Shown here: positions 1-9,211 of the stretch, one piece after another
How positions within the stretch are numbered: position 1 is the stretch's first letter
How the letters are laid out: every line of letters starts with the position of its first letter
DNA from: Ignavibacteriota bacterium
Lineage (GTDB): Bacteria > Bacteroidota > Ignavibacteria > UBA10030
Direction: 5' to 3'
Length of the DNA stretch: 64,000 nucleotides
Assembly: GCA_963701295.1 (NCBI GenBank)
Contig: OY969585.1
Location: 1,280,001 to 1,344,000 of the forward strand
Notes under the pieces: model-generated
Told to the model about the DNA's origin: nothing
The model's input: only the letters and a program-made list of their open reading frames with translations
Databases searched by the model: none
Translations under genes and position numbers: made by a program

Positions 1-392
1 CAAGATCAATAGCCAGATATCCAATCCATTGAGATTCTTACGCAATGTATCAAAGGTGAGCTTATAATTTGCAGTGACGAGAACATCTGAAAAATCATTT
101 GGTGTGCCAACGGCATATAATCCGGGGGCGACTCGGTAACGATCTCGGCGAATTCCCCAGCGGACTCTGAAAGCACCAAGGTAATCTCTTATGTCCAATT
201 GTGATGAAATGCGTGGAATCATTCCTGCCGGTGTTTGAATTTCATCCAAGATATAACGCCCTTTTTTTTTAAATTGAAGATGGTTTTACTCTCTGCGATT
301 TGGCAGCCACAATTATCAGCCGGAATTTTCAACTGGAGAGATACCAATTCCTCGGAATTCTCGCAACCGCATGGCTGATTTGAATATCCCAT
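1..392 (-). CDS. hgcA: HgcA-like mercury-methylation corrinoid protein, 5' part (runs off the window edge; -1 frame break at A9 run 262-270)
   Basis: Manual translation of the minus strand, 261 to 1: GRYILDEIQTPAGMIPRISSQLDIRDYLGAFRVRWGIRRDRYRVAPGLYAVGTPNDFSDVLVTANYKLTFDTLRKNLNGLDIWLLIL. This matches the HgcA segment preceding the cap-helix motif N(V/I)WCA(A/G)GK, which would lie just outside the window. ATG at 392 is 3 nt after the arsC stop but in another frame. Confidence 0.82.
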
Positions 393-395
393 ATT

Positions 396-830
396 CTATC
401 TTCGACTATCTTTCAACTTCGATTGATAAAGCTCAAAAAACTTCTCTTTGATTTCATCCCGTACACGCCGAAAAACTGCAAGCACTTCTTCTTCTGTTCC
501 TGTTGCCTCTGACGGATCATCGAATCTGAAATGGAGACTGTGTTTCACTATTCCGTTAAATACCGGACATGTTTCTTTGGCATGATCGCAGACTGTAATG
601 ACATAATCGAATGACTCGCTAAGAAATTCATCAACCGACTTTGGATACCCGATACTAATGTTGATTCCCACCTCTTCCATGACCTGAATTGCACGGGAAG
701 AGACGCGCGATGCCGGATGTGTTCCAGCAGAATAGACTTCCAGGTCCGGATCGAACGATTTCAAAAATCCTTCCGCTATCTGGCTTCTGCAGGAATTACC
801 GGTGCAGAGGATAAGAATACGCTGCGTCAT
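396..830 (-). CDS. arsC: Thioredoxin-coupled arsenate reductase (LMW-PTP fold)
   Basis: P-loop CTGNSCRS, resolving cysteines in VCDHA and ETCP, DDP motif; ars operon context. Confidence 0.93.
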   Translation of the reverse strand: MTQRILILCTGNSCRSQIAEGFLKSFDPDLEVYSAGTHPASRVSSRAIQVMEEVGINISIGYPKSVDEFLSESFDYVITVCDHAKETCPVFNGIVKHSLHFRFDDPSEATGTEEEVLAVFRRVRDEIKEKFFELYQSKLKDSRR

Positions 831-850
831 AATGATTTCTTTGTTATGAA

Positions 851-1729
851 TTATTCATTAATCCATGAAACTGTATATTCAGTGTTTTCTGGAATTTCTA
901 CCCGGGGGTCTTTGATTACCCATTGTCCATTCAAAGCCAACGCACGTGCAGTGAATTCAAAATGGCACATCGCAATACCCATATCAACGCGTTGTAAATC
1001 GGCAAGTCTGAGAATGTTAAATATCATTGTTCCTTTGCCGTATCCTTTCGTCCGCTGAAGATAAAAATGCCATGCATCACCGATTCGAACAATACGCCAT
1101 GGTTGTTTATTCGAAGCCGATGGAGCCCAGCGAACCATTTCCAATGGCTTAGCATATTCACCAGTAGTATCTACAGATAATGAGTTACCGAATATCTCTG
1201 AAAAGAACAATTGATCTGATGGCAAACGGCGAGCAGCACTCAGGTATTTCCTGATCTGTCCGTTTCTACCTCTTTGCTCCTCATCATATCCGATAGAAAC
1301 AACAGCAGGAATTGATTCTTTCTCACATAACGATATTTTCTTTGCAAAACTGCTCTGGGTAAATGAACCACCAAGCCAGCATGTTCCTACACCAATATTG
1401 GTTGCTGAAAGAATTGCCTGTTCCAGGAGATACCCATAGTCTTCAAGGTTTTTTGATCCTTGCTCAACTGCACCAATAATAAATCCTGTCGGGTTCTTGA
1501 TGAAACCGTATGTGCCGAGTCCTTTCAACGCTTTTCTATCGTCCTGGATAGCAGCAACCAGTTCAAATCGAGCTTTCGTTCCCAGAGGACCAACTTTCAA
1601 TGTTTCTAAAAACCCTCTCAGTTCCTGTTGTTGCGTTTCCTGTACCGGTTCATCAATATAAGAACGGCAGGAATATCGCTGTCTTATGATTTCTTGAATG
1701 GGTTGATTCATTCTTCTTTCCTGAAGCAT
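851..1729 (-). CDS. Two-domain nitroreductase-family flavoprotein
   Basis: RYSCRSY, GVGTCWLGG and APSASNKQPW motifs; start may be ATG 1711 (MNQPIQ). Confidence 0.85.
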   Translation of the reverse strand: MLQERRMNQPIQEIIRQRYSCRSYIDEPVQETQQQELRGFLETLKVGPLGTKARFELVAAIQDDRKALKGLGTYGFIKNPTGFIIGAVEQGSKNLEDYGYLLEQAILSATNIGVGTCWLGGSFTQSSFAKKISLCEKESIPAVVSIGYDEEQRGRNGQIRKYLSAARRLPSDQLFFSEIFGNSLSVDTTGEYAKPLEMVRWAPSASNKQPWRIVRIGDAWHFYLQRTKGYGKGTMIFNILRLADLQRVDMGIAMCHFEFTARALALNGQWVIKDPRVEIPENTEYTVSWINE

Positions 1730-1739
1730 ACCAGCTGAA

Positions 1740-2177
1740 TTATAAATCTAGTTTCATGCATATAGCCGAACTGCAGCAGCAGCTCCCAAATTGTGATGAT
1801 TTCTTCATAGTGTCATTTTTGATAGAAGAACGATCTACAGCAATAAATCCTTTCTTGGCAAAGAACTTCGATGCGGTTTCTGTTAAAAGCACTATCCTCT
1901 TAATATTCCTCTGTTTTGCCAGTGATATCATCCAGTCTACCAATTGTGTACCGATTTGTTTCTTCTGTAAAGAGGTTGGAACAGCCACGGAACGGAGCAG
2001 CGCATCTTCGTCGTAATATTCAAATCCGGCAACTCCAACGATAGCATTATTCTCAACAGCGAGATAGAATTCAGTCATTGTTGTGCCGACTGTTTCTGTT
2101 GGGAGTTTCTGGCTTTCCAGCAGCGAGCGAATGTCTACGGTGTCTTTTTCTGCCGCTTGACGATACGAAATGTTCAT
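1740..2177 (-). CDS. arsN2: Arsenic-resistance GNAT N-acetyltransferase, ArsN2-like
   Basis: ALLRSVAV, IVLLTETA..FF.K.GF and C-terminal SQFGSCCCSSA; overlaps the arsM stop. Confidence 0.8.
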   Translation of the reverse strand: MNISYRQAAEKDTVDIRSLLESQKLPTETVGTTMTEFYLAVENNAIVGVAGFEYYDEDALLRSVAVPTSLQKKQIGTQLVDWMISLAKQRNIKRIVLLTETASKFFAKKGFIAVDRSSIKNDTMKKSSQFGSCCCSSAICMKLDL

Positions 2178-2983
2178 GACTTCTCCGCATAGACTGTTAT
2201 ACTAAATATACCGATGTGACTTCTCTTGTAATCCTGCAATTGATCTACAGTAAGAAATCTAGAAAGAATATCGTTTGGGATATCGATCTTCCTATCCCTT
2301 TGAATGGTGATATTTATGAAACCGGCTTCTTTAATGATCCGCAGATATTCTTCTTTCTGAACAGCACCGGAAATACATCCAGCGTACAATGTCGCTTCAT
2401 TTCGAAGTTCATCTGAAAGTTCGCCTTGCAGAACGATATCCGAAATACTGAAATGTCCACCTGACTTGATAATTCGGAATGCCTCTGCAAATGCTTTTTT
2501 CTTATTAGGCACTAGATTCATAACACAATTGCTCACGACAACATCAGCGGTACCTGTTTCAATGGGCATATTGTCTATATCACCCAAACGGAATTCCACA
2601 TTCTTGAATCCGAGTTTTTCTGCATTCGTTCGTGCCTTTACAATCATCGCTTCTGTCATATCAATTCCGATAACACGTCCGGTTTCGCTGACGATGGAAC
2701 GCGCAATAAAGCAATCATTCCCTGCGCCCGAACCAAGATCGATAACTGTGTCGCCTGATTTGATTTGAGCAAACTCTGTCGGCAAGCCGCATCCTAATGC
2801 AAGATCAGCATCGGGGACATAGCCGGGAAGTTTTGTATAATCTTCAGCCATGATCGAAAAATCCACATTCGAACATCCGCAGCCGCTGCCGCAGCAAGAG
2901 GATTGGTTCTGCTCTTTGGTTTGCTGTGCAATGGCTCCGTATTTCTCTTTCACCATTTCTTTGATCTCTCGTTCGGTATTCAT
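2174..2983 (-). CDS. arsM: Arsenite S-adenosylmethionine methyltransferase
   Basis: LGCGLP, DLGSGAGND SAM motif, SNCV and GCISGA cysteines, N-terminal CCGSGCGC. Confidence 0.95.
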   Translation of the reverse strand: MNTEREIKEMVKEKYGAIAQQTKEQNQSSCCGSGCGCSNVDFSIMAEDYTKLPGYVPDADLALGCGLPTEFAQIKSGDTVIDLGSGAGNDCFIARSIVSETGRVIGIDMTEAMIVKARTNAEKLGFKNVEFRLGDIDNMPIETGTADVVVSNCVMNLVPNKKKAFAEAFRIIKSGGHFSISDIVLQGELSDELRNEATLYAGCISGAVQKEEYLRIIKEAGFINITIQRDRKIDIPNDILSRFLTVDQLQDYKRSHIGIFSITVYAEKS

Positions 2984-3005
2984 ATGTCATTCTCCTATAA
3001 ATAAC

Positions 3006-3023
3006 TATCGCAATATTACGATA
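3006..3023. promoter_or_regulatory. Putative ArsR operator, copy upstream of arsM
   Basis: Near-perfect 18-bp palindrome TATCGCAATATTACGATA; 16/18 identical to the copy at 3371-3388. Confidence 0.7.
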
Positions 3024-3041
3024 GATGAGTATAAAAAATTT

Positions 3042-3362
3042 TCAACAACACGATTTCACGTTATTCAGAAACTGAGCAAGAATCTGTTTTGCTTCCTGCC
3101 ATGCTTTTTTATTAATGCAGTAACACACCTTCGGTCCTTCAATCTCGCCTTTGATTAGACCGATACGTTTCAATTCAGCAAGATGTTGTGATACAGTCGC
3201 CTGAGACAGGGGGAGTTCTTCCACAATGTCGCCGCAAACACAAGCATTTTGTTTAGCTAGGAATTCTAGAATTGCAATTCGTGCCGGATGTGCAAAAGCT
3301 TTCCCGAGATCCGCGAGGCGATTCTGACTGTTGCTAAAAACTTCTTTCTTTGATGTTCCCAT
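3042..3362 (-). CDS. arsR: ArsR/SmtB metalloregulator
   Basis: KAFAHPARIAIL, CVCGD metal box, LSQATVSQHL helix-turn-helix, C-terminal CC; true start taken as ATG 3362 (MGTSKK). Confidence 0.93.
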   Translation of the reverse strand: MGTSKKEVFSNSQNRLADLGKAFAHPARIAILEFLAKQNACVCGDIVEELPLSQATVSQHLAELKRIGLIKGEIEGPKVCYCINKKAWQEAKQILAQFLNNVKSCC

Positions 3363-3370
3363 AATTCTTA

Positions 3371-3388
3371 TATCGTAATAATACGATA
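3371..3388. promoter_or_regulatory. Putative ArsR operator, copy upstream of arsR
   Basis: TATCGTA-ATAA-TACGATA 7-4-7 palindrome 8 nt upstream of the arsR ATG. Confidence 0.7.
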
Positions 3389-3455
3389 GAAGTTTCACAA
3401 AAACAAGAAAAAAATGAGATGATGCCTTTATACGCGGGAAAATGGGTCGTTCTGT

Positions 3456-3502
3456 AAAAAAACTTCTGGCTTTCCGAAGAAAAAACCTAAAACTGGAAAG
3501 CC
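3456..3502 (-). terminator. Possible intrinsic terminator after ftsZ
   Basis: 8-bp stem GGCTTTCC/GGAAAGCC with a long 19-nt loop; T7 run 5 nt downstream on the minus strand; atypical geometry. Confidence 0.35.
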
Positions 3503-3589
3503 GCAAATGCGTGAGTCATCCCTCATTCCCACCGTGCAAGGAGAGAAGAGAAAGTACATCACTTCTATCAATATGAAATAGCCGCCCGA

Positions 3590-4765
3590 TTAGTCCATGA
3601 TCTTACGAAGGAACGCTGGACGTTCGGTATCGGACTTGTCAATCCTTTCTCTTTGCATACCGACTTCTCGAAGCGGAGCATTTGGAATTTCTACACCGCG
3701 ACGTACGAATGTCGGCACCTCAAAACGCTGCAACTCTGTTGGACCGACTGGCACATGGTCGATCAGTTTCGCTGTTGGTTTTGCAGGCCGTTGAACTGCC
3801 GCTGCTCGTTTGTTGAAACCGGTTGCGATGACGGTTACCATAATCTCTTCTGTCATGTTTTCATCAATGACAGTGCCGAGAATAACGTTTGCTTCCTCGC
3901 CTGCTGCTTCGTGAATGATTTTTGTTGCTTCATCCACTTCCATAAGGCTGAGTTCTTTACCGCCCGTGATATTGATGAGAATGCCCTGTGCTCCGGCGAT
4001 GGATACACCTTCAAGTAACGGGCTGGAAATTGCCATTTGTGCTGCTTCGGTTGCACGGTTTTCGCCTGAAGCAATACCGGTGCCCATGAGCGCGTCGCCC
4101 ATTTCTTTCATGATAGTACGCACATCGGCAAAGTCTACGTTGATGTAGCCTGGGACAGTGATGACTTCCGAGATGCCGCGCGTGGCATTATATAAAACCT
4201 GATTGGCTATTTCAAATGCTTCAAGAATAGGAGTGCGTCGATCAATAAGATCAAGAAGCCTTTGGTTGGGAATGACGATGAGCGTATCGACATTCTTCTT
4301 CATCTCTTCAATTCCTTGCTCGGCTTGTCCATTTCTTCGTTTGCCTTCGCTGTTAAAGGGCTTCGTCACGATACCTACTACAAGTGCACCGACACTTTTT
4401 GCGATGCTGGCTACTAATGGTGCACCGCCGGTACCGGTACCACCGCCCATTCCTGCAGTGATGAATACCATATCACAACCGGACAGGGCCTGCGCGATTT
4501 CTTCCCGATCCTCTTCTACAGCACGGAAACCAATACTGGGGTCAGCGCCGGCGCCGAGTCCGCGCGTGAGGTTTTTGCCAATTTGAAGTTTATGCGGAGC
4601 TTTATTGCGTTCCAGTGCTTGCAGATCTGTGTTGATGATAACGAAATCAACACCAGCAAGACCTTTATCGATCATACTATTGACGGCATTGCCTCCGCCT
4701 CCGCCAACACCAACAACACGAATTTTTGCTCCTCGACCAGTTACGGTGTCAAGTTCGATAGGCAC
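3590..4765 (-). CDS. ftsZ: Cell division protein FtsZ
   Basis: [15 protein letters not shown] and INVDFADV motifs, C-terminal PAFLRK. Confidence 0.99.
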
Positions 4766-4821
4766 GGTGGGTTCTCCTTTTATTTGTTGTGAAATTATTG
4801 TTAATAAAGTTCTTACTCGTA

Positions 4822-6060
4822 TTACAGTTCGTCAAACCACGATTTCATTTTCTGGAAGATCGTTCTACCTTTTCCGTCTTGAATGACTGCTTTTACACCG
4901 GAACGATCACGATGCTTTAATTCATGCATCACTAATCCGACGCCTGTGGCGTAAATTGGATTCTCGATTTCTCGAACGAGGCCAGAGCTGAATCCGCCTG
5001 GAATTCCAATCTTTACTGGCATTCCGAGTACCTCCTTTGCAAGATCAGCAGTTCCTTTAATAAGTGAGCCGCCACCGGTGAGCACAACACCTGCTGAAAG
5101 ATGCTTAGAATACCCGGAACGTTTGATCTCCATCGCAGCAAATTCTAAAATTTCTTCCATCCGTGGCTGAATAACTTTGCAGAGTAAATGTTTGTCGATT
5201 TCGAGCGGTGCGCGTCCGCCAATACCGGGAATTTGAATCGGCTGGTTATCCACGATTGCAGGCTCGTACGTGAAGCCATAATCCACTTTGATTTTCTCGG
5301 CTTGATCTGTGAGGATGCCAAATCCTTTACGAATATCGTCCGTTACTTTTCTGCCGGCAATACCAATGACAGCTGTATGACGAATAGTTCGTTCCTCGAA
5401 CACGGCGAGATCCGTTGTGCCACCGCCGATATCGAGAAGCGCCACGCCCACTTCTTTTTCTTCATCATCCAAAACTGCATAACTCGATGCAAGTGGTTCG
5501 AGCACCATATCGTTGACATGCAAACCGGCGCGTTGGACGCATTTGTAAATGTTTTGCGCTGCCGTAACTAGTCCGGTGATGATATGAACAATCGCTTCCA
5601 TGCGGACACCGGACATTCCGACAGGATCGTAAATGCTATCCTGTCCATCGACAATGAATTGCTGGGGAATGACATGAATAATTCTTCGGTCAAGCGGAAG
5701 TGCGACACGTTTTGTATCCTCAATAAGCCGATCAACATCTTCCTGCGTAATTTCATTTTCCGGCCTGCTGATACTGATGACTCCGCGGCTTTGAAAACTC
5801 TGAATGTGGTCGCCAGCGATACCGACTGTCACAGAACTAATTTTTACACCGGATTGCTGTTCAGCATCCTGGACAGCCGATTGAATGGAACGAACAGTTT
5901 TTTCAATGTTTGTCACCACACCACGGGTCAATCCTTCAGATGTGCTCTTGCCAATGCCAAGTATTTTCAGTTTCCCGGGATAATTGTCATCTGGTGATGC
6001 AACAATTGCACATACTTTTGTGGTACCAATATCTAATCCAACTGCTATATCCTGCTCCAT
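4822..6060 (-). CDS. ftsA: Cell division protein FtsA
   Basis: [17 protein letters not shown] and LTGGGS actin-like motifs; position in dcw. Confidence 0.98.
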
Positions 6061-6105
6061 ATCACATCCTTCTCGTCATAAATATTTTCATTAAATAATC
6101 TTTCG

Positions 6106-6867
6106 TTATAGACTCTTTGTTGCTAATGGTTCTTGACTCCAGCGTGCAACGATCTGATCTTGATACCTTAAATCCACATATTGCAAGTATTGCACTCCAC
6201 GCGTTCGTACAATATCATTCCAAAATATTTCCAATCGAATAAGTTTTCCAGGAAGTTCACCGCGTCCAAAAATAATAGGCACACCGCCTTCCGCCGAGTA
6301 GAGCACAATATCTCCACCATTTCGCACTTGTATTTCTGAAATATTATGATACAATGGACGATTCACGGTTCTTAACACTGCAAGCAATTGCAGAGCTTCG
6401 ATTTCGTCTGGCTGAGTAATGGTTGAACCTAAAACAAAGGGCTCACTTGCCGAAATTCCGCTGATCATGGGCAGATCAAAAATCTTGTACGAAACAGTTT
6501 TGGGAAGTACGACTCCATCTTCATCTAAATACACTGGTTCGGAGAGATTCACCATGGCGACAGGAACGCGCTCAATAATTTGAATATGTATTGAATTGGG
6601 TAAGTTTCGCTCAACCACAGCATCTTTGATATAATAATGGCTCATGACATTTTGTTGAATTGCGGTTAAGTCAACTTTATACAGAAGTGCACCTATTTGT
6701 ACTTGAGTAAGTTGAATAATTTCATTCGTGTTGACGATCCGGTTGCCGTCTATTTTAATTTGATTGATTTTCAAACTTGATTTCCATGCATTAGCACCGA
6801 ATGCAAGACAAACCACCAAAGCTATCAGCATCAGCACATGAAAAGTCTTCGGTTTTGATTCGTTCAT
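6106..6867 (-). CDS. ftsQ: Cell division protein FtsQ/DivIB
   Basis: N-terminal TM, POTRA-like region, IIERVP, YVDLRY; upstream of ftsA. Confidence 0.92.
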   Translation of the reverse strand: MNESKPKTFHVLMLIALVVCLAFGANAWKSSLKINQIKIDGNRIVNTNEIIQLTQVQIGALLYKVDLTAIQQNVMSHYYIKDAVVERNLPNSIHIQIIERVPVAMVNLSEPVYLDEDGVVLPKTVSYKIFDLPMISGISASEPFVLGSTITQPDEIEALQLLAVLRTVNRPLYHNISEIQVRNGGDIVLYSAEGGVPIIFGRGELPGKLIRLEIFWNDIVRTRGVQYLQYVDLRYQDQIVARWSQEPLATKSL

Positions 6868-7790
6868 GCTGCTTCCTTCGCAGAACTGGAGAATCCGACC
6901 ATCCTAACTTCCAACTCCAACATCACTCCTGAATTTTGATATACCGTACGCTTCACCAAATCGATGAGTTTTACTATGTCCTCTGCTTTCGCATTGCCAA
7001 GATTGATAATGAAATTTGCATGCTTCTCTGATATCTGTGCGTCGCCCACTCGTTTGCCTTTTAATCCGGCTTGTTCAATCAATTTTGCCGCAAATGTATT
7101 TGGTGGATTCTTGAACATACTACCAAGGTTTGGAAATTCCAGCGGCTGAGTCTCATTGCGGCGAAGGATCAATTCCCGACGCTTTGCACTGAGCGGTTCT
7201 TTGTCCCCTCGTTGAAGCTTAAATGCTGCACTCAGCACAACATCTTGATCAAATCCCGAATGCCGATATGAGAACTGCGCATTTTCATTCTTCACTTGCT
7301 GTGTATGTCCATTGCGGATGACTTCAACTTCAATAAGATGATCGGCAATTTCGCCGTCGTGAGCACCGGCATTCATTGCTACTGCGCCGCCGATAGTACC
7401 GGGAATTCCAGCAAGCATTTCCACACCAGCAAGTTCATTCTGAATACAGAAGTCAACAAATTTTGTCAACCATACCCCAGCTTCAGCAATGACAAAATTG
7501 CCATCGATATAAATTTTTGAAAGTGCCTGTTCAACATTTATAACAGCACCTCGAATTCCTTCGTCACTGACAAGGAGGTTGCTTCCCCGACCGAGAACCA
7601 TCCACGAATAATGATGGGTGTGAAAATAGGCGATGATTGCCTTGAGATCATCTTTATCCATCGGTTCGATGTAGAAATCTGCCGGCCCACCGACCTTCAT
7701 CCATGTATATTTTCTCATTGGTTCATCAACAGCAATGTTGCCGCGGAGTATCTTCTGTATGTCATTTAAAGAGATCATTGTTTCATGCAA
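6864..7790 (-). CDS. murB: UDP-N-acetylenolpyruvoylglucosamine reductase
   Basis: GGPAD, GRGSNLLVSD, GIPGTIGGA..MNAGA, GSMFKNP, KHANF. Confidence 0.97.
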   Translation of the reverse strand: MHETMISLNDIQKILRGNIAVDEPMRKYTWMKVGGPADFYIEPMDKDDLKAIIAYFHTHHYSWMVLGRGSNLLVSDEGIRGAVINVEQALSKIYIDGNFVIAEAGVWLTKFVDFCIQNELAGVEMLAGIPGTIGGAVAMNAGAHDGEIADHLIEVEVIRNGHTQQVKNENAQFSYRHSGFDQDVVLSAAFKLQRGDKEPLSAKRRELILRRNETQPLEFPNLGSMFKNPPNTFAAKLIEQAGLKGKRVGDAQISEKHANFIINLGNAKAEDIVKLIDLVKRTVYQNSGVMLELEVRMVGFSSSAKEAA

Positions 7791-7825
7791 GGGAATATTT
7801 TTAACCTGCTCGGATTTATTCCTTT

Positions 7826-9211
7826 TTACTGTTTGTTCTTTATTTGATTTAAAAACTCTTCACCGTATTTCCAGATATCACCTGCACCCATGGTTATTAC
7901 GATATCACCCGGTTTTACGATAGACTTCAGAAAAGTAGCAACCTCTTTTTTATCCGGAACATAGTGAACATCCTTGTGACCAAATTGTTTTGCTGCATTT
8001 ACAATTAACTCGCCGTTCACTCCCTGTATCGGTTCCTCGCGCGCAGGGTATACATCCGTAACAACCAGCACATCTGATAACAGGAACGACTTGCCGAAGT
8101 CTTCATAGAAATCGCGCGTACGGCTGTACAGATGCGGTTGGAAAACACATACCACCCGTCGCCGCCAACCTGACTTCACGCCGGAAAGCGTAGCCCTGCA
8201 TTCCGTTGGATGATGTGCGTAATCGTCGTACAAAGCAATATCGTTCACTTCGCCTTTCTTTTCCCAACGCCGATAGACGCCAGCAAATTTCTCGATGCCA
8301 GCTTTGATCTTTTTAAATGGTATGCCAAGTTCCAATGCGACAGTGATTGCACCCAGCGAATTCTGTACGTTATGGATGCCCGGCACCTGAAGCATGATTG
8401 TGCCTAGTTCATGATTATTACGAACAAGCGTGTACGTGGTTGAGTTATCCTTGTGTCGGATGTCCACCGCTTGAACGTCCCCTTGCGGGTTAAGACCATA
8501 GGTGACAATTTTCTTTTTGCTCAAGTGTGGCATAATATCCAACAATGCTGGTTCATCGAGGCAGAGAACAATGAATCCGTAGAATGGTACTTTTGATGCA
8601 AACTGGATAAATGCACTTTTGATATCTTCCAAATCACGATAACAATCAAGATGGTCGGTTTCGAGTGTGGTCAACACGGCAATGGTCGGTGTGATGGACA
8701 GGAATGACCGATCGTATTCATCCGCCTCTACAACAATGAATTCACCTTGCCCAAGACGCGCATTCGTACCGCCTAATCCGCTTAATTTACCGCCGACAAT
8801 AACTGTTGGATCAAGTCCGCCTTCCATCAGTACAAGACTTGTCATCGAAGTCGTCGTTGTCTTTCCGTGAGTGCCAGCGATGCCGATGCCATATTTTAGC
8901 CGCATAACTTCAGCAAGCATTTCGGCCCGACGCACGATGGGAATGGTTCGCTTCTGGGCGTCGAGAATTTCTGGGTTATCCGGTTGTACCGCAGAAGAGT
9001 ACACAACGGTGTCTACATCTTGCGCTATATTTTCTGCACGATGCCCTTCGAATATACTGGCGCCAAGTTTTTGGAGACGTTCCGTCACTTCAGAAAGCGC
9101 GCGATCGGAGCCGCTAACCTTAAATCCCTGATCGAGCAGAATTTCAGCTATGCCACTCATCCCTATACCGCCGATACCAATGAAATGTAATTTCTTGATA
9201 GAACGAAACAT
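7826..9211 (-). CDS. murC: UDP-N-acetylmuramate-L-alanine ligase
   Basis: HFIGIGGIGMSG, GTHGKTTTT, EADEYD, DDYAHHPTE. Confidence 0.98.
   Translation of the reverse strand: MFRSIKKLHFIGIGGIGMSGIAEILLDQGFKVSGSDRALSEVTERLQKLGASIFEGHRAENIAQDVDTVVYSSAVQPDNPEILDAQKRTIPIVRRAEMLAEVMRLKYGIGIAGTHGKTTTTSMTSLVLMEGGLDPTVIVGGKLSGLGGTNARLGQGEFIVVEADEYDRSFLSITPTIAVLTTLETDHLDCYRDLEDIKSAFIQFASKVPFYGFIVLCLDEPALLDIMPHLSKKKIVTYGLNPQGDVQAVDIRHKDNSTTYTLVRNNHELGTIMLQVPGIHNVQNSLGAITVALELGIPFKKIKAGIEKFAGVYRRWEKKGEVNDIALYDDYAHHPTECRATLSGVKSGWRRRVVCVFQPHLYSRTRDFYEDFGKSFLLSDVLVVTDVYPAREEPIQGVNGELIVNAAKQFGHKDVHYVPDKKEVATFLKSIVKPGDIVITMGAGDIWKYGEEFLNQIKNKQ

Follow-up and report, generated by a model that had tools for sequence, protein, structure and literature searches.

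The control of the mercury-methylation genes hgcA and hgcB (hgcAB), and the purpose for which they evolved, are both touched by a locus at the start of a 64,000-nucleotide stretch from an Ignavibacteriota bacterium (contig OY969585.1), referred to here as the window (G000:C1:1280001-1344000, where G000 is the window's own genome, a 3.64-Mb single-contig assembly). The minus strand of the locus carries six open reading frames (ORFs): arsR, arsM, arsN2, a nitroreductase gene, arsC and hgcA. The original prediction for this locus, made from the sequence, held that hgcA is an integral gene of an arsenic-resistance (ars) operon, that methylmercury production would be arsenic-inducible and that the native role of HgcAB may lie in arsenic chemistry. 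We consider it probable that the locus is an eight-gene ars operon de-repressed by arsenite (As(III)) or methylarsenite (MAs(III)), in which hgcAB is co-regulated mercury-methylating cargo. The locus would tie hgcAB to a sensor type whose biochemistry has been studied under a name of its own, and to an operator known from footprinting.

Probable arsenic control of an eight-gene cluster

We scored the proteins against Pfam and NCBIfam profiles with the family cut-offs, and those of arsM, arsN2, hgcA, hgcB and acr3 scored over their NCBIfam cut-offs (hgcA, NF040863, 419 against 275). The gene order and every gap given originally were reproduced (58, -4, 10, 20 and 3 nt from arsR to hgcA). No efflux gene had been seen, but we located acr3 downstream of hgcB, just outside the window. 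In the 15 kb examined before the window start, the same strand continues with the rest of hgcA, hgcB and acr3 (gaps of 13 and 35 nt) and is followed by convergent genes. The full unit is arsR-arsM-arsN2-nitroreductase-arsC-hgcA-hgcB-acr3, with a maximum gap of 58 nt. With ars genes on either side, and with arsC immediately before hgcA in 9 out of 11 hgcA-bearing genus relatives, the view of hgcA as an integral ars-operon gene is upheld.

As judged from gene spacing, the cluster is likely transcribed as a single operon. No terminator had been visible between the genes originally; our scan listed one terminator-like hairpin in the arsR-arsM gap (3024-3005), which we discarded because the hairpin is an operator palindrome. 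Terminator-like matches were at chance level in two scans (3 vs 5.5 +/- 2.5 and 5 vs 4.6 +/- 2.3), as were promoter-like matches (14 vs 14.4). These results bear on whether hgcAB is merely located in the cluster, with its own promoter and no response to arsenic, which we regard as very improbable. Internal promoters are possible from the sequence, and a weak promoter-like match (877-850, minus strand, 9/12) lies upstream of arsC. However, the 3-nt gap leaves no room for an intergenic promoter, the promoter-like matches do not exceed chance, the downstream acr3 would require read-through from the same direction, and stand-alone hgcAB of relatives retains an ArsR operator.

The window ArsR has cysteines at positions 41, 43, 80, 82, 105 and 106, and the As(III)-site pattern Cys41/Cys80/Cys82, without the R773 third cysteine, is present. 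ArArsR of Arsenicibacter rosenii SM-1 has Cys41, 43, 80, 82, 107 and 108 and senses As(III) as well as MAs(III); the As(III) response requires C41, C80 and C82 and the MAs(III) response C41 and C82, and As(III) induces arsRMC of this organism about 160- to 350-fold (PMC11868830). A homologue on a Spirosoma oryzicola plasmid (108 aa, 63% identity to the window ArsR, Cys 41/43/80/82/107/108) heads arsR-arsM-arsC-acr3 and is preceded by the same palindrome, and the ArsM proteins of the two loci are 55% identical. A single-sequence structure model of the window ArsR (predicted local distance difference test, pLDDT, 76) gave a winged-helix ArsR/SmtB fold and serves as fold confirmation only; a PDB sequence search with this ArsR gave no match at 1e-8.

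Compared with the ArArsR DNase I footprint, 17 out of 18 bases of predicted operator O2 and 15 out of 18 of predicted operator O1 are identical. We searched for further sites with a palindrome pattern derived from O1 and O2 themselves, so that conservation is the real test. The window contained four strand matches, or two sites, against 0.03 expected, and O1 and O2 are the sole sites in the 3.64-Mb genome at up to one mismatch. Both palindromes are present in 14 out of 15 genus relatives, while in the fragmented assembly of G003 neither the palindromes nor the repressor were found. The candidate arsR promoter is conserved among relatives, yet is absent from the consensus promoter scan list.

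By analogy with A. rosenii, ArsR dimers would sit on O1, over the repressor's own promoter, and on O2, and As(III) binding at Cys41/Cys80/Cys82 would free ArsR from both. Going by family functions, ArsC would reduce As(V), ArsM would methylate As(III) with S-adenosylmethionine (SAM) and Acr3 would export As(III). HgcAB, whose methyl donor is SAM (PMC11588087), would be made simultaneously and likewise consume SAM. Arsenic would raise the hgcAB transcript, and HgcA would still be produced in this genome, either with its frame break an assembly error or from a start at ATG 222. The tight gaps around hgcAB (3, 13 and 35 nt), the flanking ars genes, the lack of a promoter or terminator excess, the ArsR cysteines, the palindromes and the induction reported in Pseudodesulfovibrio mercurii ND132 all argue for this model. 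We strongly infer arsenic control of the unit, and the repressor cysteines and footprint-matching operator make inducibility better supported than it originally was. Induction of hgcAB by arsenic is likely, because the repressor and its sites match a studied arsenite sensor. More transcript need not mean more methylmercury, however; in ND132 the sign of the arsenic effect on methylation depends on culture conditions (bioRxiv 10.1101/2022.10.17.512643).

Several points weigh against the reading of hgcAB as cargo of an ArArsR-controlled operon. The assignment of the window ArsR to the ArArsR type is a putative one, made from cysteine positions, operator and a close homologue. Another transcription unit might begin at arsM, with O2 in front of it; arsenic control would be unchanged by this. 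hgcA is frame-broken as assembled. Finally, the arsenic link is kept across the rearrangements described below, which exceeds the need of a pure passenger and favours an arsenic-related function of HgcAB.

Table 1 Features of the ars-hgcAB cluster. Positions are those of the window, except where prefixed with the G000 contig (C1).
Feature	Position	Strand	Description
candidate arsR promoter	3378..3406	minus	by eye: -35 TTGTTT (3406-3401), 17 nt, -10 TATTAT (3383-3378) inside O1
operator O1 (predicted)	3371..3388		palindrome TATCGTATTATTACGATA (minus strand); 18 bp; 8 nt before arsR ATG
arsR	3042..3362 (ATG 3362)	minus	106 aa; ArsR/SmtB; PF01022; NF033788 72.8 vs cut-off 55
operator O2 (predicted)	3006..3023		TATCGTAATATTGCGATA (minus strand); 18 bp; between arsR and arsM
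arsM	2174..2983	minus	269 aa; arsenite S-adenosylmethionine methyltransferase; NF008823 344 bits vs cut-off 263
arsN2	1740..2177	minus	145 aa; ars-operon GNAT acetyltransferase; NF040501 130 vs cut-off 125
nitroreductase	851..1729	minus	TM1586-like; 292 aa (285 from ATG 1708); PF14512 121 vs cut-off 27
arsC	396..830	minus	144 aa; LMW-phosphatase-fold arsenate reductase; CTGNSCRS motif; Cys9/14/81/88
hgcA 5' part	219..392 (ATG 392)	minus	Cys-rich N-terminal extension; separate 57-aa ORF as assembled
hgcA frame break	259..270	minus	A9G3 run; close relatives are two bases shorter here
hgcA body	1..249 (TTG 249 or ATG 222), on to G000:C1:1279236	minus	cap-helix motif NVWCSAGK
hgcB	C1:1279222-1278917	minus	NF040864 104 vs cut-off 99; outside window
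acr3	C1:1278881-1277832	minus	TIGR00832 452 bits vs cut-off 283; outside window

Among the other ars proteins, Cys65, Cys153 and Cys203 of ArsM align with cysteines of a solved ArsM (PDB 5evj). ArsC passed PF01451 (79 vs cut-off 23) and scored under the cut-off of TIGR02691 (128 vs 174). The acetyltransferase was assigned with the ArsN clades of PMC6465285; it passes the ArsN2 model, and we rejected ArsN1 (arsinothricin acetyltransferase; clade 1, phosphinothricin-acetyltransferase-like). The nitroreductase is known by its fold family, PF14512 being its only family match, and by its ars linkage; nitroreductases that reduce roxarsone (e.g. BsNtrA, PMC11730784) are a possible point of comparison. 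It occurs in 19 out of 277 genomes of the order, all within the window's family, and wherever flanks were visible its neighbourhood consists of ars genes or includes hgcA next to it, except at one short locus. A dedicated role as HgcAB helper was rejected, as 5 of the 19 carriers are without hgcA and only 1 of the 80 wider loci described below has the gene. In G019 (L020:10217-12949) an opposite-strand 565-aa ORF, which is probably an insertion element, breaks the nitroreductase gene, and arsC is separated from hgcA by an additional SAM methyltransferase gene.

The hgcA frame break

ATG 392, originally taken as the hgcA start, is present, but it opens only the 57-aa ORF, and the conserved HgcA body lies in another frame. 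Full-length relatives have an HgcA of 382-387 aa with the Cys-rich stretch fused to the body. The body has the make-up of HgcA, a cobalamin-binding domain with the cap-helix motif, which we take to be N(V/I)WC(A/S)(A/G)GK, and a membrane domain at the C terminus. Read from ATG 222, it is stop-free and covers profile positions 1-322 of 325, and the stop of the 57-aa ORF overlaps this ATG (ATGA, 222-219). A search of sequencing runs listed no RNA holder and a single DNA run (6% of words), whose contigs come from relatives (30 out of 37 less than 90% alike); in one such related contig the two extra bases at the A9G3 run are absent. The run contains A_AAA_AAG, presumably a frameshift motif. We set aside programmed -1 frameshifting, since the run is absent in 7 out of 7 aligned relatives. 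The break may be an assembly error or a mutation.

If the break is real and abolishes the protein, hgcA is decaying and the operon no longer methylates mercury. The two additional bases compared with relatives fit this explanation, as does the finding that the assembly is not generally frameshifted: with 316 relative proteins as queries, the matches covered 47 G000 loci, and frame changes were seen at two, a query-side arsM-arsN2 fusion and hgcA, the only one on the G000 side. In a crude test, nine-base A/T runs were break-like in 4 out of 80 cases, compared with 94 out of 3000 random places, with no clear enrichment. Decay of hgcAB is moreover demonstrated within the order by G420. However, the break falls within a homopolymer run of a single-contig assembly, hgcB is intact, and we consider decay improbable. 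Whichever origin the break has, HgcA function probably survives, because the body from ATG 222 is near-complete against the profile and the HgcA of G040 is naturally without the N-terminal extension.

HgcB has cysteines at 19/22/25/29 and 49/52/55/59, forming two CxxCxxCxxxCP motifs, and further cysteines at 72, 74, 90, 98 and 99. This corresponds to the published features of HgcB, an adjacent ferredoxin that carries the CxxCxxCxxxCP motif twice and has further cysteines at its C terminus (PMC11588087).

The arsenic link in relatives and its bearing on HgcAB function

We found hgcA in 11 out of 15 genus relatives and in 7 out of 251 genomes of a class-wide sample. Across the order, 21 out of 277 genomes carry it, and 12 of these carriers, G000 among them, are members of the genus. 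At 20 of the 21 loci hgcA belongs to an ars cluster or has the operator before it, with G003 entered on its ars-linked nitroreductase alone, and one locus is at a contig edge. Within the genus, arsC and hgcA are again 3 nt apart in G004, G005, G006, G009, G010 and G011, and acr3 follows hgcB within one gene in 7 out of 11 relatives; in G004 and G011 a flavin reductase gene sits between the two. The identical eight-gene order was found in 2 out of 11 (G009 and G010). arsM lies inside the operon in 7 out of 11, split in G002 and fused to arsN2 in G015, and was not found in G001, G003, G008 or G011. O2 and the first arsM codons remain in G001 and G011, and therefore arsM has been lost there. G007, G012, G013 and G014 have kept arsR-arsM without hgcAB. 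arsM and hgcAB have thus been lost independently within the genus.

Outside the genus, six of the nine hgcA loci are in ars clusters, one (G435) is at a contig edge and two are stand-alone. In the latter, G229 and G414, hgcAB occurs alone with the palindrome directly upstream, and the repressors (69% and 59% identical, with all four cysteines) are sited with arsM elsewhere. G420 has the operator, a deleted hgcA-hgcB remnant and then arsR, a second site, arsC and acr3. G229, G414 and G420 are members of the same family, and a single rearrangement may lie behind them. In G040, where the ArsR is a different one, hgcAB has arsC on one side and acr3 on the other.

A wider survey took in the 80 best-scoring loci out of at least 593 with hgcA, a set biased toward the query and including some short contigs. 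Gene labels came from BLAST searches against 66 reference proteins, for which we set the thresholds ourselves. An ars structural gene was found within the hgcA run at 26 loci and none at 54; arsC together with acr3 was found at 13, and arsM at 2, with one further SAM methyltransferase (L055) under threshold. arsM is thus no constant companion of hgcAB. Together with the losses in the genus, this weakens the originally drawn tie to arsenic methylation specifically, and we rejected tight ArsM-HgcAB coupling. An ArsR-like gene was found within the run at 31 loci, at least one of which (L114) is actually MarR.

A tree of 93 rows (the 80 loci and 13 hand-labelled ones; G011 omitted as a probable duplicate; 18 rows unlabelled with short flanks) showed ars linkage for 36 out of the 46 rows that make up its Bacteroidota/Ignavibacteriota half, compared with 5 out of 47 elsewhere, and the linkage requires at least 11 changes, a number that stands without a shuffle control. 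The window HgcA falls in a 14-row clade (FastTree support 99), whose two named rows are Ignavibacteriota metagenome-assembled genomes (MAGs), so that by its HgcA the organism probably belongs to this phylum. A looser palindrome was found before the hgcA run at 26 out of 80 loci (23 out of 33 in the Bacteroidota/Ignavibacteriota half) against about 6 expected, a count that is partly circular since the pattern was partly derived from the surveyed loci; it was absent at 7 out of 7 loci having regulators of other types. Among 28 linked repressors of the window's subfamily, C41 is kept in 27, C82 in 28 and C80 in 7.

These patterns raise the possibility that HgcAB is a working arsenic enzyme of the operon. 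As(III) or methylarsenite would then be methylated by way of methyl-cobalamin and SAM, or HgcAB would assist in dealing with As(V), and mercury methylation would be a side reaction. The arsenic link survives rearrangement in G229, G414, G420 (where the operator-hgcA part stands ahead of arsR) and G040, most linked repressors keep C41 and C82 without C80, a pattern with which ArArsR responds to methylarsenite only, and an ND132 hgcAB knockout is more sensitive to As(V). Yet the knockout is no more sensitive to As(III), and hgcAB-containing ND132 cultures contained no methylarsenicals (bioRxiv 10.1101/2022.10.17.512643). The operon already has an intact arsM, most surveyed loci are without an ars structural gene, relatives retain arsR-arsM without hgcAB, and the stand-alone loci, all in one family, perhaps record one event. 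In addition, a 2026 preprint proposes halomethane dehalogenation as another candidate role of HgcAB. We consider an arsenic enzyme unlikely. The proposed native role in arsenic chemistry is possible, and action of HgcAB on arsenic is a minority hypothesis.

In a more specific form, to which we give little credence, hgcAB is a selected member of an ArArsR-type arsenite/methylarsenite regulon that spans Bacteroidota, Ignavibacteriota and deltaproteobacteria and probably includes ArsR2 of ND132. Its native substrate would be a trivalent arsenical, most likely methylarsenite, with mercury methylation as a side reaction, and the operator would be kept when hgcAB leaves the ars operon because of this substrate.

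Other arrangements were seen at the surveyed loci. At the deltaproteobacterial arsR-hgcAB loci L081, L085 and L088, the palindrome is almost the same and the ArsR, which has at least 384 homologues, shares the four cysteines. In Bacteroidales, L057:1067-1112 has two loose palindromes directly before hgcA, with no arsR in the available 1.1 kb. MarR genes lie directly before hgcA at L062, L063, L069, L072, L095, L100, L105, L106, L107, L114, L123 and L125; these 12 proteins have a conserved Cys near residue 33-45 (a CC pair in 4 out of 12) and a C-terminal Cys, placed similarly, by position without alignment, to Cys36/37/157 of MarR_ars (bioRxiv 2021.08.12.456183). Immediately 5' of hgcA, L060, L102, L108 and L148 (G321) encode a membrane protein that resembles CcdA/DsbD and is about 233 aa long, and unassigned ORFs of similar size occupy the same spot at L066, L068, L090, L094 and L116.

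Around the window locus, the division and cell-wall genes ftsZ, ftsA, ftsQ, murB and murC (3590-9211, names read from translations) lie directly upstream, and most genus members likewise have the ars locus after ftsZ. Between ftsZ and arsR, a non-coding stretch (3440-3590, minus strand) is conserved in 10 genus members and ends in a hairpin (arms 3502-3495 and 3475-3468) with a T run. The stretch probably holds the terminator of ftsZ, preceded by a conserved element; it folds no better than shuffles (z -1.03), and Rfam gave only a chance match over window positions 1-5000 and none for 3440-3590. Just past acr3 (L001:10055-12814), two further genes of the ArsR family occur together with genes for a SAM methyltransferase, for a flavin reductase and for a Met-rich protein, the last of which gave a weak TsoA-like match. 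G000 has a second ars cluster (C1:~538500-544400), with a different ArsR, thioredoxin-like proteins, an ArsP-like permease, a CcdA-like protein, arsC and acr3, and this cluster is without the palindrome.

Comparison with known systems

The occurrence of hgcAB inside ars clusters is already published, Ignavibacteriae included. McDaniel et al. 2020 (PMC7438021, Fig. 6) report arsC and acr3 at the flanks of hgcAB, and arsR and arsM close by; these loci have the same flanks as ours, and the text examined does not mention arsN2, the nitroreductase, the repressor type or the operator. MAGs of Ignavibacteriae and Bacteroidetes in which hgcAB neighbours arsC, arsB and arsM have also been described (bioRxiv 10.1101/2022.10.17.512643). 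In another dataset, ars genes were on 4 out of 35 hgcAB contigs, and arsR was upstream in 14 out of 31 confirmed methylators (PMC10349881). The additions made here are the proposed assignment of sensor and operator and the stand-alone operator-hgcAB loci in two genomes of the order. In a literature search with most subscription journals and the ND132 supplements outside its scope, we found neither the ArArsR type or its operator tied to hgcAB nor stand-alone hgcAB behind such an operator, and the terms hgc, mercury and ND132 are absent from the main text of PMC11868830.

In ND132, where arsenic induces hgcAB (bioRxiv 10.1101/2022.10.17.512643), an ArsR-family gene, arsR2, likewise lies upstream of hgcAB, but unlike the window, the locus is without ars structural genes. 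The cysteines of ArsR2 (47/49/86/88) have the spacing of those in the window (41/43/80/82), and this spacing suggests that the two may share a subfamily; ArsR2 was not among the 120 of 384 ArsR homologue matches listed.

Arrangements of the type arsR-arsC-hgcA-hgcB-acr3 in Bacteroidales MAGs share the arsC-hgcAB-acr3 core, the repressor subfamily and a related palindrome with the window, but are usually without arsM, arsN2 and the nitroreductase gene, and their repressors are mostly without Cys80. If the model is right, the expression of hgcAB in these bacteria would depend, among other inputs, on the arsenic of anoxic sediments, and the operator could be used to predict arsenic-controlled methylators where no ars gene adjoins. 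ArarsRMC of A. rosenii SM-1 shares the repressor cysteines, the operator sequence and the order arsR-arsM-...-arsC with the window. That system, however, is a three-gene operon of an aerobe without hgcAB (PMC11868830), whereas the window operon comprises eight genes and is equipped with a further full operator.

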